Source of the DNA: Macrostomum lignano
Taxonomy: Eukaryota
Direction: 5' to 3'
Assembly (NCBI GenBank): GCA_002269645.1
Contig: NIVC01001753.1
Span: 1 to 64,000, forward strand
Length of the DNA: 64,000 nucleotides
This document shows, piece by piece, positions 52,821 to 64,000 of this stretch; the stretch's first letter is position 1, and each line of letters starts with the position of its first letter. The notes under the pieces were generated by a model that saw only the letters and a list, made by a program, of their open reading frames with translations, had not been told where the DNA came from and ran no database searches. The translations under genes were made by a program, and so were the position numbers.

Positions 52821-53493
52821 GTTTTGTGAAGGCTGCCAAGCTGACGGATGAACAGCTATTCAAGTTGCCTGCCGATCTGATTGGACCTCACGAATCCACT
52901 TTAATTGTCCTCCAAGTCTGCTTGGCGATAACCTTGGCCTGCATGTCTGCAGAGGCCTTGACCACCACCACATGAGGCAGCGCTTGTGTCGCCATCGAAT
53001 GGCGCACCTGAATGTGCTTTGCGTAAAAATTTTGTGTTGGTCAAGTTGTACATTCCTATCCATTTCATATGCTTTTTCTTAAAATTGTAGGGGAAAACGT
53101 GTATGATTTTCCTTGCATTCGCTATTATGATCATCGTCTCTAAGAATGAAAGCCTATAGCCGGCTTTGGGAAATCCTTTTCTTTTATCGGTCAATGAACC
53201 GGTGTTAGGCTTTCTGTTCACTGTGGTCTTAATTTGTCCAGGGAACATAGCAAAGCAAAATTATTGTCGCATTGCGATAACCTACCCTGGATAATCCAAG
53301 GCACAACAAAATCGGGCTTTGAAATATCCTGGGTCTTGAATTGTCCGGGGTGAATAAAGATTGGGGTGGCAGGTTTGTCAAATTATGTAAATGCGTGGGG
53401 CAGAAGGACACCATTAAGCGAGAATGGGACTGACTCATAATACACCAGTAGAAGGCATGAGGGGGCTTTTGGGACAAAATTTTTCACGTCCTC

Positions 53494-53700
53494 CATAATC
53501 CCAGTAAATCCATCCATATTATCCCCGACAGAAACAGAAAAAAGGGGGGTCGCACTCGCTCACAAAACCTCCTCCATAATCCCATTAAATCCATCCATAT
53601 TATCCCCGACAGAATCAGAAAAAAGGGGGGTCGCACTTGCTCCGAAAACTTCGAACATAATCCCATTAAATCCATCCATATTATCCCTGACAGAATCAGA
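53494..53700. repeat. 81-bp direct repeat (~2.6 copies) in the viral left region
   Basis: CATAATCCCA starts at 53494, 53575 and 53656. Confidence 0.9.
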
Positions 53701-53926
53701 GCAGGTGTCCACTGATACCTGTTATGCTCACTGTGGACACTTGTTATGCTCACTGACACTGAGATAATCCACCAACATCCACCCATAACATCTTCGAAAC
53801 AATCAGAAAATAATCTGCATTCTTCTCCCCACATTCAATCCGCAACGTGCTACCAGATCCCAAAGATTTTAAATCATCAGCGCAGGGTCCTTACCCTTTG
53901 AAAAAAAAAATAATTTCTCAATAAAA

Positions 53927-54124
53927 ATGTTTCCAGTTGTCTCTCCAGGTTCCTATTATACTCAGCCTCATCCATTGTACAAATCCAAGTACCAATGCAA
54001 ACTAGAATGCAGCGAATACATGAGAAAATATTGGCCCAACGTTGATATCAATGTCCCCAATATTAATCTAGCTCTCCAAAGGCATTGTTTCATAAGTAGG
54101 AGTAACCTATGTAAAAGATTATGA
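53927..54124 (+). CDS. Small viral hypothetical protein (65 aa, Cys-containing)
   Basis: ATG in an ATAAAAATG context like the other viral ORFs; converges on the minor capsid gene. Confidence 0.4.
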   Translation: MFPVVSPGSYYTQPHPLYKSKYQCKLECSEYMRKYWPNVDINVPNINLALQRHCFISRSNLCKRL

Positions 54125-54168
54125 CAGCTACTATAACTTTGCAGAAATCATTAGGCAATTGTGATTTC

Positions 54169-55032
54169 TTACATTCTCTCAATGATTAACGTCAATACAA
54201 ACTCTTCACCGTTGAAATCAACACCCATCCCATCTTCAGTCTCAAACTGTAGCACAATCTCGTGAATCTTTTTATTACTCAATACAACTCTTTTCACTGG
54301 ATTTGGTTTCTCTACCACCATCTGTCCTCCAGCAACAGAGTTGGAGATGTTGTACAAAATATTCGTTCGCTTTCCCTTAAATACCCAATCAAGACTGAGA
54401 TTGCTTCTGATTAGAATATTCAAACCCTTTACAATGTCTGCAATATTGGGTGCTAAGAACAAACCGCTTACACTTTCCCGGACCATTCTAACAGTTCCCG
54501 ATGCTTGAGTGGCGGTCCGCGCCGCGGATTCTGCCTTATAAACTTTCTTCTCGAATCCCAGTTCCCTATACCAAGTGTCATCTTTAAACTCAACCTCCGC
54601 ATCTTTGTGAACTTGCATGACCACTCTCATTACAGTGAGATCATAGGTTAGTTTGACAGGGAACAGTTTCTTCTCTGGCTTACTCGCATCAGGTGTCTCA
54701 AAATGGCCTCTCTTAGTAAAGACATTTTCTAGAAAGTTATTGTAGGTATCCACACTTTGCGTGCTCACATGGAATACCACAGGGTCTGCTGCTGCACCTT
54801 TCCATTTGTAATAAAACTTATTATTTGCTGCCATCACATTGGGAACGTTTGACCAACCAGTGAAGTCGTTAAGATAGACATGGTAATTAGCGCCTGGATC
54901 CAGGCGAATCGCCTGCTCTAATTTTTCAACAAACATCCCGTTTGAGTCATTAATTCGCCCAGTTATTGTAATAGGAATGCTCTCCTTGGAGTGAGAAACA
55001 ATATTATTTAGTCTTTCAGCAATCGCTTCCAT
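54169..55032 (-). CDS. Putative minor capsid protein (penton-like single jelly roll) of a Polinton/adintovirus
   Basis: IRLDPGANYHVYL...SNVPNVMAANNKFYY at the N-terminus and IHEIVLQFETEDGMGVDFNGEEFVLTLIIE at the C-terminus match the Polinton minor capsid pattern; lies directly downstream of the MCP. Confidence 0.75.
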   Translation of the reverse strand: MEAIAERLNNIVSHSKESIPITITGRINDSNGMFVEKLEQAIRLDPGANYHVYLNDFTGWSNVPNVMAANNKFYYKWKGAAADPVVFHVSTQSVDTYNNFLENVFTKRGHFETPDASKPEKKLFPVKLTYDLTVMRVVMQVHKDAEVEFKDDTWYRELGFEKKVYKAESAARTATQASGTVRMVRESVSGLFLAPNIADIVKGLNILIRSNLSLDWVFKGKRTNILYNISNSVAGGQMVVEKPNPVKRVVLSNKKIHEIVLQFETEDGMGVDFNGEEFVLTLIIERM

Positions 55033-55447
55033 TTTTTTTCACATAAAAAAATATTTAAACTTTACTGGATGAATTGTTGATCATGTTAAGCTTCACCTTC
55101 CTCTCAAATGCATAGATAATGTACAGGTCCACGGGTGTTGCGGTAGTCCTCTCAATGTTAGTCACGATATTCACAGGGCTGTTATCAGTAGGCATTTGTC
55201 TGGCAGACACATCAGCGCCAAACATCGGATATAGAGTTCCATATTGAAGAGCAGTGATAGCAATTCCATTGTTCTCTTTCACAGCCAAGTCGACCAACTC
55301 GCTGTAAAATTTGCTAATCTTGTTCTGACTGAAATCTCCATTTTGTGGCAGTGCAGGGTAAAGATTATCACTGATTTCATGCTGAATGGACCGCACGTCT
55401 CCATGCATGTAGCGTATAATGCTATTTGGGTTTCTCATATTAATAAT

Positions 55448-62131: not shown

Positions 62132-62327
62132 TTTGGTGCACCCTGACGGTAAAAGAGATGTGAGGGTGTAGGACTAGTCGGATGTAGGACTAGTCAAAAA
62201 AAGACACACACAACCCGAAAAAAGACACACACATCCCGCAAAGAGACACACACATACACATCCCGAAAAAAGACACACGCGTCTTAAATAAACAAGTTTA
62301 AAAAGAAAAAGTTTTTTTACATAAAAA

Positions 62328-63128
62328 ATGGACTTCACAAACGACTTTCATCCCCACTGGACACGCAATCAGATAAAATTTGCTCACAACGAGATAATTC
62401 CAGGGCACTTCCGATGCATTGTTGTTGGCTCATCTGGGTCAGGGAAAACCTTCAGAGTTTTTAACATGCTCCTCAGACCTGGATTCCTCGATTATGATAC
62501 ACTACATATCTATTCACCCACTCTGTATCAAGATGAGTATAAAATGCTAGTAGCGGGCCTACAGAACAAACTCAACAAGGAAGATATTATTCAATGTTTT
62601 AGACATCAAAAAGACCTCAACAGCAACCCGGAAGTTGTAGCCACTGAATACGCAAAGCACATCCCAGACAATGAAAAATGGCAAAACATTAAAGTTTTCA
62701 CTTATGGAGATCCACAGATAGATCCTAAAACTAAACTCTTACCTCAACCTGATGAACTAGAAAAGGGGAGAAAGCACCTGATTGTCTTTGATGACTGCAT
62801 GACCGGTCCCCAGAAACAGATAGAAAATTATTTCACCCGGGGTAGACACAATAACTGCAATGTTATTTACATTGCCCAAAACTGGTTTGAACTGCCAAAT
62901 AAAACAATTAGAGGTAACTGTAATTTGATTCTCCTTTTCCCAACCATACCACAGGATCGACTGAAATGATTTTATAATGAGGTCATTGCCCCAGCTCACA
63001 TTACATATCCAGCTAAGAACTCTAACAGAACAATATCACAGGAGGAATTTGTTAACATATGCTATGAAAAGTGGAATCAACCCTATCAGTTTGTCATGAT
63101 TAATAAGGAGAAAAGAATTTTACTTTAA
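62328..63128 (+). pseudogene. FtsK/HerA (A32-like) DNA packaging ATPase with one in-frame TGA at 62967-62969
   Basis: Walker A GSSGSGKT, Walker B LIVFDDC and RGRHNNCNVIYIAQ. The same frame continues past the TGA to EEFVNICYEKWNQPYQFVMIN and TAA at 63126-63128. Confidence 0.88.
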
Positions 63129-63145
63129 TTTTTTTATTTAAAAAA

Positions 63146-63880
63146 ATGTCAGTAAATTTTGCAGGTGAGTCAACTACAGGCAACAGCACTCTCACAACTT
63201 CCTTCCTTGACAAGCGCTACATTAACACTGATGAGGAGATCCCAGAGATCAAACTGAATAAAAACAGAGTGAAACAATTAGAACGTTCCATGCACCAGTT
63301 GCAAATGAACATGGAAGATCTCAGGCTTAAAGTAGCTAGACAGAAGTTTGACAGTGATAAGCTTTATGTGCCGTTGTTAAACGCAACTAATGAACTAAGG
63401 TCAGAAATAACTTCGGCGGTCTCGCAAATCAACGGCTTGAGATCTACAGTTAATCTTCTGGGAAATTCCACTGATAGACGGATGCGTATTCTTGAAGGAG
63501 GAGTTTTCACAAACACAGCTAAAGTGAATAATTTAGAAGAGTTCATAAACCAGTCAACAGCATTGCATGATAGAATTAGAGAAAACGTCGCAACCAACAC
63601 AGTTAAAGTGAGGAATTTACAAGAGTTCATGAACCAGTCAACATCGTTGCATGATAGAATTAAAGAAAGACTTGATGCATTAGAGAGAAACGATGTATCA
63701 CACAGTAGCTATCTAAACGGAATGTATAGCTCTTGGGGTAAAATAATAAGGAGGCTTAATCGCCTGGAGAGAACACTCAATCTTCGTGATATTGCTATTG
63801 ATGAAGCAGAATCTGCTGCTCGTCCGGTCATTACTGCAGATGAAATTATCAAAAAGAAAACAGACCTTCAAACCGGATAG
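63146..63880 (+). CDS. Viral coiled-coil protein (244 aa) with an internal duplication; fibre/spike candidate
   Basis: Heptad-rich; repeats NTAKVNNLEEFINQSTALHDRIRE / [33 protein letters not shown] start context. Confidence 0.7.
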   Translation: MSVNFAGESTTGNSTLTTSFLDKRYINTDEEIPEIKLNKNRVKQLERSMHQLQMNMEDLRLKVARQKFDSDKLYVPLLNATNELRSEITSAVSQINGLRSTVNLLGNSTDRRMRILEGGVFTNTAKVNNLEEFINQSTALHDRIRENVATNTVKVRNLQEFMNQSTSLHDRIKERLDALERNDVSHSSYLNGMYSSWGKIIRRLNRLERTLNLRDIAIDEAESAARPVITADEIIKKKTDLQTG

Positions 63881-63914
63881 TTTTATATTTTTTTTATTTT
63901 TTCTAGAGAAAAAA

Positions 63915-64000
63915 ATGGCCCAAAAAATTCTCTATACGATCAGTCTCAATACGCTGAACCTAAAATACCGACAGCACCAAACTCGATGGCACCGAATTCG
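63915..64000 (+). CDS. 5' end of the next viral ORF (truncated by the window end)
   Basis: GAAAAAAATGGCC start context; frame uncertain because of an A-run. Confidence 0.4.
   Translation, partial: MAQKILYTISLNTLNLKYRQHQTRWHRI

Follow-up and report, generated by a model that had tools for sequence, protein, structure and literature searches.

Polintons and adintoviruses (Polintoviricetes; Starrett et al., PMC8502044) are elements of about 15-16 kb with terminal inverted repeats (TIRs) and a 6-bp target site duplication (TSD). They encode the polymerase pPolB with an OTU-like N-terminal part, an rve integrase, the protease adenain, an A32 packaging ATPase, a double-jelly-roll (DJR) major capsid protein (MCP), a penton, PLA2 and pX-like genes, and the Polinton/Maverick gene set is given likewise in PMC11161782 and PMC6431247. 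Here we analyzed an element of this kind in the window, that is, the whole stretch of 64,000 nucleotides C1753:1-64000, where C1753 is contig NIVC01001753.1 of the 764-Mb assembly of the eukaryote Macrostomum lignano. Long TIRs, a 6-bp TSD, pPolB, rve integrase, adenain, A32 ATPase, a penton, PLA2, pX and, by sequence profile, a DJR MCP are all present. We consider it highly probable that the block at the right end of the window is the capsid and packaging half of a damaged integrated Polinton, whose family likely spread recently as free linear DNA followed by reintegration.

Vertebrate Mavericks (Barreat and Katzourakis, PMC8097293) share with this family the 6-bp TSD, the TIRs, mostly defective copies and purifying selection on capsid genes, which was reported for cyprinid Mavericks; Maverick particles were not observed according to that study. 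They occur at a median of 8 and a maximum of 287 copies, and genomes with ~170-290 copies hold only defective elements, in contrast to the about 240 or more copies with core genes only ~2% apart described here. Nematode Polintons (Jeong et al., PMC10748475) also show multiple recent copies, module exchange and nuclease domains inserted in pPolB. However, their polymerase is swapped on a shared capsid background, whereas here capsid and ATPase vary on a shared polymerase, and no fusogen was identified in the present element. Coral polintoviruses (PMC11131425) likewise reach very high copy number in an invertebrate, with up to 1,676 viral regions in one coral, therefore high copy number alone is not unprecedented. 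The Polinton replication scheme is a proposal (PMC11131425). Flatworm Polintons were already known: 8 of 73 genomes together carry 748 pPolB1 copies (PMC10748475 supplement), and Mavericks have expanded in Dugesia (10.64898/2025.12.11.693146).

Boundaries, capsid genes and placement of the element

The whole element spans C1753:53447-72894 (19,448 bp), and the window holds its left half with the capsid and packaging side. It is bounded by a 463-bp TIR pair of 97.6% identity and by two exactly matching TSD copies, and an empty sister site on contig C1176 joins both flanks across one 6-bp overlap. Reading on beyond the window, which a preliminary description of the block had proposed as a check, located pPolB, the rve integrase, adenain, the right TIR and the matching 6-bp TSD within the next 9 kb. 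Because of these features and the penton-like fold of the minor capsid protein (mCP), the block is assigned as the left half of an endogenous Polinton/Maverick of the adintovirus type, a known kind of element.

The preliminary description, made from the letters of the window, had placed an endogenous adintovirus or Polinton-like virus at 52880-64000. An endogenous Polinton/adintovirus lies there indeed, and the presence of both pPolB and the rve integrase marks it as a genuine Polinton, not a Polinton-like virus. Its start is at 53447; positions 52880-53446 are host flank, which runs on unbroken at the empty sister site, and a Ty3/gypsy retrotransposon lies inside the block (Table 1). The intronless gene block itself, with mCP, MCP, an ATPase bearing Walker A/B and RGRH motifs, a coiled-coil open reading frame (ORF) and orphan ORFs, is present as had been listed.

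The AlphaFold2 model of the mCP, obtained with an 83-row alignment, reached a pLDDT of 93 and a pTM of 0.84. Foldseek matches of this model were the mavirus penton (E 5e-10), the adenovirus penton base and the Sputnik penton, and comparison with the mavirus penton by VIA gave Z 13.1 and a root-mean-square deviation of 7.3 with 238 aligned, in agreement with the jelly-roll-like minor capsid proposed before. A Pfam scan of the alignment found no family common to more than one of the 83 rows.

For the MCP, a DJR was predicted from sequence profiles. Its main piece matched Pfam PF21738 (DJR-like) at E 8.2e-6, below the gathering score, and 13 of 16 aligned MCP relatives matched the same family (best E 1.8e-16). 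Atlas feature hits of 0.96-0.97 included clusters with PF21738 (14% of members) and PF16903 (23%; capsid of nucleocytoplasmic large DNA viruses), at a recognition value of 1908 that is under the tool's 2300 mark. The single-sequence AlphaFold model of the 403-aa piece had a pLDDT of 31.6, too low for a fold call, and a PDB sequence search with the MCP profile gave no match. Unbroken natural copies elsewhere in the assembly encode MCPs of 428 aa, exactly the length that had been reconstructed from the damaged gene.

The retrotransposon that splits this MCP gene carries long terminal repeats (LTRs; 55448-55682 and 59554-59780) that are identical across their shared length, therefore its insertion was very recent. 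It accounts, together with the duplication it caused, for ~4.67 kb of the element. The flanking duplication of MCP target sequence measures 316 bp in the assembly, and 5-bp duplications flank three other copies of this gypsy element read by eye. The 5' LTR stops 8 bp short on its outer side and a filler of 19 bp, derived in part from the LTR end, comes next, while the other end is normal, and the junction with the MCP gene is unique in the assembly. The aberrant integration (window 55131-55447 and 59781-60116) fits a one-ended integration that would have been completed by repair.

The insertion at C1753 is recent, as indicated by the TIR identity and the empty sister site. A young insertion had been suggested before on the grounds of few lesions; the age agrees with these data and with the youth of the family (see below), but the reason does not hold, as at least five genes other than the MCP are broken in this copy. 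Though recently inserted, the copy is likely dead, because its MCP is split by the gypsy element, ORF-A is deleted, the ATPase and coiled-coil frames are short, and pPolB and the integrase are in pieces.

The capsid lineage is divergent by sequence, as had been anticipated. A word-seeded MCP search, of a type that misses distant kin, returned only 15 proteins at E<=1e-3, none of them named, and the relatives fell at 70-77% and 40-45% identity without a named source. This differs from the adintoviruses of PMC8502044, as the capsid proteins found here had no named relative above E 1e-3 in the searches made. No related loci were found in the viral contig and metagenome contig collections. The nearest full-length pPolBs were 40-49% identical, the named ones being from a sponge and cnidarians, and in the pPolB tree the family formed a long branch with no supported sister (30 of 121 rows kept after thinning, with no labelled Alpha or Beta references).

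The polymerase looks Beta-like, judging from its weak PF03175 score (44.7 bits in one piece only, the C-terminal piece having no match) and its endonuclease VII domain, yet PLA2 is present, which is described as an Alpha-module hallmark of adintoviruses (PMC8502044). Unlike the Alpha-adintovirus PLA2X of Starrett et al. (PMC8502044), in which PLA2 carries a C-terminal pX-like domain, PLA2 and pX are on separate ORFs here, and the PLA2 ORF gave no pX match at E<=0.1. Among the Beta-adintovirus traits, which include a divergent PolB, GasderminX and Cupiennin-like genes, the divergent PolB with endonuclease VII fits, and the amphipathic ORF is only a candidate Cupiennin-like gene.

A Polinton-like virus or virophage, or a contaminating free virus, is a very improbable substitute for an endogenous Polinton. 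The best structural match of the penton is to the mavirus virophage, and the MCPs nearest in sequence (70-77%) are from ENA, JGI and Logan assemblies. However, an exonuclease-bearing pPolB and an rve integrase are both present, the nearest named pPolBs, from sponge and cnidarians, are about 44-45% identical, and the element is integrated in host DNA, as its TSD and the empty sister site show.

Family size, selection and reassortment

The exact 24-base end motif occurred 482 times (247 forward, 235 reverse; control 0), and thus the assembly holds at least about 240 elements, a floor from end motifs, yet 2 of 35 examined elements duplicate another examined locus. This supplies the count of genomic copies that the preliminary description had called for. 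At roughly 240 elements and up to 15-16 kb each, the family takes up no more than about 0.5% of the assembly. Among the 35 two-ended elements examined, a non-random set from first-listed contigs and loci chosen for inverted gene pairs, the TSD was exact in 26, had one mismatch in three and was lacking in six; 33 have distinct flanks and their TSDs differ. TSD base composition was mixed across elements.

All 103 scored MCP hits were 97-100% identical in amino acids and 101 had no stop inside the match, although these were the best 103 of 577 candidates and hence biased to unbroken copies; for pPolB, mCP and integrase, 150 hits each were scored. Median nucleotide distances among 16-17 full-length copies were 2.3% for MCP, 1.6-2.3% for pPolB, 4.8% for mCP and 7.1% for integrase. 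The family is therefore young and large. In the full-length sample, the MCP was unbroken in 8 of 16 copies and the mCP in 11 of 16. The stretch is present in 20 sequencing runs from seven studies of one organism, and no RNA run is listed among the runs containing it. As a separate observation, family elements serve as a landing pad for other transposons, and copies nested in or adjoining other family copies were seen on C2829, C1098, C27 and C3589.

A total of 295 frameshifting indels were counted, with ATPase counts inflated by a divergent allele; 225 were of 1 bp, 224 were deletions and 134 lay in runs of three or more bases (45% versus 26% background). Short-read contigs differed from the window by small indels within the fresh gypsy element. 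Because the damage consists mostly of single-base deletions enriched in base runs, and because of these short-read indels, part of the gene damage is likely assembly error.

Calculated against the commonest codon per column with a simple site count, without transition correction or tree, dN/dS of shared variants was 0.10 overall (MCP 0.05, mCP 0.11, ATPase 0.04, integrase 0.06, pPolB 0.08-0.15) and that of private variants 0.35. By this count, the capsid genes were under purifying selection during the spread of the family. Two capsid alleles with 83% amino acid identity were found, the rarer one in 2 of 16 copies, along with two ATPase alleles (11 and 6 of 17 copies) up to 21% apart. They occurred in three combinations over a pPolB differing by <=3.7%, and distances of the ATPase hardly correlated with those of the other genes (rho 0.06-0.12). 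By these comparisons, capsid and ATPase modules reassort over one polymerase.

Long-arm derivatives and the mode of spread

Copy-back or snap-back defective genomes are known for linear DNA replicons such as adenovirus and linear plasmids; one end is copied onto the other, replication genes are lost and a helper is needed. Six independent loci of the present family, found via inverted gene pairs among the scored hits, likewise carry one arm repeated in inverted orientation at the opposite end, five with left arms and one with right arms (Table 1), and the polymerase and integrase region is missing in four of them. Unlike copy-back genomes, these derivatives have become fixed in the germline, flanked by TSDs, and retain two copies of capsid or integrase genes. 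Such long-arm derivatives are not described in the accessible part of the coral study (PMC11131425), and the openly accessible literature yielded neither a description of this family nor one of palindromic Polintons with genes (Repbase, subscription papers and bioRxiv supplements were outside the search).

The long arms are 99.2-99.9% identical, and all six loci have exact direct TSDs. In four of five cases tested, the arms were closer to each other than the duplicated genes were to other copies (~98%), the exception being C633, whose genes are 99.6% identical to those of C14. In two independent derivatives the arms stop at a common place, the short-repeat region before the ATPase gene that is equivalent to the 21-bp repeat array of the C1753 copy, and the arm joints at C975 and C1584 show 0-1 bases of homology. 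At C2140 both arms carry the same 4.4-kb nested element (its frames, on inspection, resemble gag, reverse transcriptase and tyrosine recombinase) and share a stop in mCP, therefore this arm was copied after damage. The C276/C1652 palindrome was assembled twice on separate contigs at 99.6%, and its central spacer lies in opposite orientation relative to the flanks between the two, by either flip-flop recombination or assembly ambiguity.

Several candidates were rejected. C1098, C2829, C1316, C27, C48 and C3589, taken up as palindromes or oversize copies, are actually nested or adjacent copies or bear insertions. C2344 has the arm breakpoint of C869 in common, but its arms are only 91% alike and it was not counted. 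Internally deleted derivatives of 0.6-3.6 kb with both ends also occur (C32:1150965-1151833, C124:22982-23697, C289:58541-59180 and C544:473028-476600), three with exact TSDs.

On balance we lean towards the view that the long arms arose while the DNA replicated in free linear form, by copy-back or by joining of sister fragments, and that the products were then integrated in trans. Conversion within the chromosome is a weaker though still sizeable alternative, and mis-assembly is improbable as their source. Improbable, too, is the broader proposal that the high copy number, breaks and palindromes stem for the most part from errors and partial duplication in the long-read assembly. It would draw on the indel spectrum, the short-read differences and the two duplicated loci given above, and on the inverted C276/C1652 spacer. 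Against it, nearly all examined elements have distinct flanks and differing TSDs, the palindromes stop at the terminus with direct and not inverted TSDs, one was assembled twice, and the sequence is present in seven studies. Assembly artefact can explain many frameshifts, not the family.

By analogy with Polinton and adenovirus biology, pPolB (terminal protein, vOTU, exonuclease and polymerase) would prime at the TIR ends and displace a strand, and the integrase would insert the resulting linear DNA through cuts staggered by 6 bp. Assembly and maturation of an icosahedral particle may depend on MCP, penton, ATPase and adenain; roles in entry and core packing may fall to PLA2, pX and the amphipathic protein. 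In the derivatives, a polymerase template switch or sister-fragment joining in free replication would have copied one arm onto the other end, and helper proteins would have integrated the defective product in trans. The C1753 copy would have been knocked out after its integration by the gypsy insertion and smaller lesions.

Several points weigh against recent spread of the family as free linear DNA. The family is known here from assembled DNA sequence, as opposed to particles, free DNA or transcripts. pPolB is split in 17 of 17 full-length copies, none of which is unbroken, and, of the 150 pPolB hits that were scored, no more than 4 lie in frames of at least 1,177 codons. The MCP match to PF21738 is sub-threshold and the predicted fold rests on a sequence profile; the simple dN/dS count and the non-random set of 35 elements count here as well. 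Gene conversion, whether between integrated copies or within one, is another possible source of the mosaic alleles and long arms.

A rival proposal is that of an intracellular self-synthesizing transposon only, with capsid genes as recent baggage or for a non-infectious particle, and with mosaics and arms made by chromosomal gene conversion. We regard it as rather unlikely. It agrees with the lack of virion evidence, with several copies being nested in or beside others, and with C2140, where an arm was copied after damage of a sort typical of chromosomal residence; no parent locus for the nested insertion and no second locus with that junction was found among the best 40 of 367 candidates. However, shared MCP and mCP variants are constrained as much as, or more than, those of pPolB and integrase, and the long arms keep their 99.2-99.9% identity out to the terminus, compared with end-to-end matches of 80-100% in ordinary full-length copies. 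With 0-1 bases of homology, the joints at C975 and C1584 are more easily explained by end-joining or template switching than by homologous conversion.

Within the preferred reading of spread as free linear DNA, we tentatively propose an ongoing Polinton outbreak, in which a recombining virus would replicate as free linear DNA, copy-back genomes of either arm would integrate in trans, and resident copies would be re-copied together with passenger retrotransposons (C2140). If so, Polinton replication intermediates would be preserved in these loci as fossils, and the host would allow a direct search for natural particles and free genomes. A family this large and young, in which capsid genes are under selection, modules reassort and defective genomes carry copied arms, offers direct sequence tests of the proposed replication scheme, and free genomes or particles are worth looking for in this organism, which has been sequenced in at least seven studies. 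The value of the locus is in the youth of the family and the arm-copied derivatives; the element itself is of a known kind.

Other genes and the surroundings of the element

The ATPase bears the motifs Walker A GSSGSGKT, Walker B LIVFDD and RGRH, and its PF04665 match confirms the packaging ATPase of the preliminary description, except that the frame stops at 213 aa, compared with 266 aa in unbroken copies. A PDB sequence search with it gave only unrelated repeat-protein noise. The coiled-coil frame also ends early in this copy. The several orphan ORFs described before are present, but two of them (61041-61385 and 61456-61734) are the two ends of a single ~400-aa gene, ORF-A. The product of the 126-aa ORF is likely a membrane-active virion protein, judging from its predicted helix. 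The small ORF adjoining the TIR had no Pfam match.

In the pieces of the replication genes, we found what we take to be six of six Exo/Pol motifs, the adenain H-D-C and the integrase D-D-E, and, by inspection, presumed vOTU-like Cys and His motifs at the expected place N-terminal to the polymerase. A vOTU domain in that position is described for Polintons (PMC11161782). A PDB sequence search with PLA2 gave no match, and no gasdermin match was found among the ORFs of the element. Between PLA2 and the right TIR is a slot whose small ORFs vary by copy, several of them being unrelated or distantly related to one another. These slot ORFs (e.g., L046:4735-5409, L060:4827-5639 and L029:5937-6368) are interchangeable, small and helical, of about 110-270 aa, and some, judged by eye, resemble helix-turn-helix regulators. 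Pfam and Atlas searches gave nothing informative for the slot and orphan proteins.

Table 1. Features of the element on C1753 and long-arm loci of its family (window and contig positions coincide).
Feature	Position	Strand	Remarks
Left TSD copy	53441..53446	+	6 bp, TACACC; right copy C1753:72895-72900, exact match
Left TIR	53447..53907	+	begins AGTAGAAGG; 81-bp sub-repeats inside; partner C1753:72432-72894
Small conserved ORF adjoining TIR	53927..54124	+	78-80 aa in other copies, often at both ends; broken near end here
mCP (penton, single jelly roll with insertion)	54169..55032	-	intronless, unbroken, 287 aa
MCP, 3' piece	55055..55447	-	55131-55446 duplicates 59800-60115, 1 mismatch in 316
Ty3/gypsy LTR retrotransposon, not viral	55448..59799	-	gag-protease and reverse transcriptase-RNaseH-integrase frames
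MCP, main 5' piece	59800..61010	-	403 codons, predicted DJR
ORF-A remains	61041..61734	+	one ~400-aa Gln-rich gene, internally deleted in this copy
126-aa ORF with predicted amphipathic helix	61751..62131	+	hydrophobic moment 0.57, residues 38-55; present in 19 elements examined
21-bp repeat array	62183..62283	+	upstream of ATPase; equivalent region is the arm end in two long-arm derivatives
A32/FtsK-type packaging ATPase	62328..62969	+	PF04665 E 5e-7, above gathering score
Coiled-coil ORF	63146..63880	+	internal 84-bp repeat; 244 aa, up to 269 aa in other copies
ORF with two hydrophobic helices	63915..64000, continues to C1753:64642	+	
Adenain protease	C1753:64647-65048		PF00770 E 2.5e-4, 21.2 bits vs cutoff 21.3
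pPolB, in pieces	C1753:65113-68962		PF03175 E 1.2e-11; endonuclease VII domain PF02945
pX	C1753:69084-69542		PF05829 E 4.5e-7
rve integrase	C1753:69559-70554		PF00665 E 1.9e-8; stop-split here, 331-345 aa in other copies
PLA2-like gene	C1753:70585-71085		PF08398 E 3e-12; followed by variable slot and right TIR
Long-arm locus C276/C1652	C276:289398-300645 and C1652:28604-39932		one locus on two contigs; 4.7-kb left arms
Long-arm locus C633			4.8-kb left arms
Long-arm locus C1584			1.75-kb left arms
Long-arm locus C2140	107247-122715		6.2-kb left arms
Long-arm locus C869			1.6-kb left arms, otherwise full length
Long-arm locus C975			5.5-kb right arms

Directly left of the insertion site lies a dispersed ~240-bp repeat (53199-53437; 40 scored of 95 candidates). 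As a sign of target preference it gave a negative result, the flank repeat being without a nearby end motif at all six other loci checked. A 24-bp G+T-rich tandem repeat occupies 52402-52830 in the host flank, and tandem arrays also surround several other copies. A host ankyrin-repeat exon-like ORF is located at 48883-49668, ~3.8 kb left of the insertion, and a diverged family fragment lies 10 kb right of the element at C1753:82630-85840.

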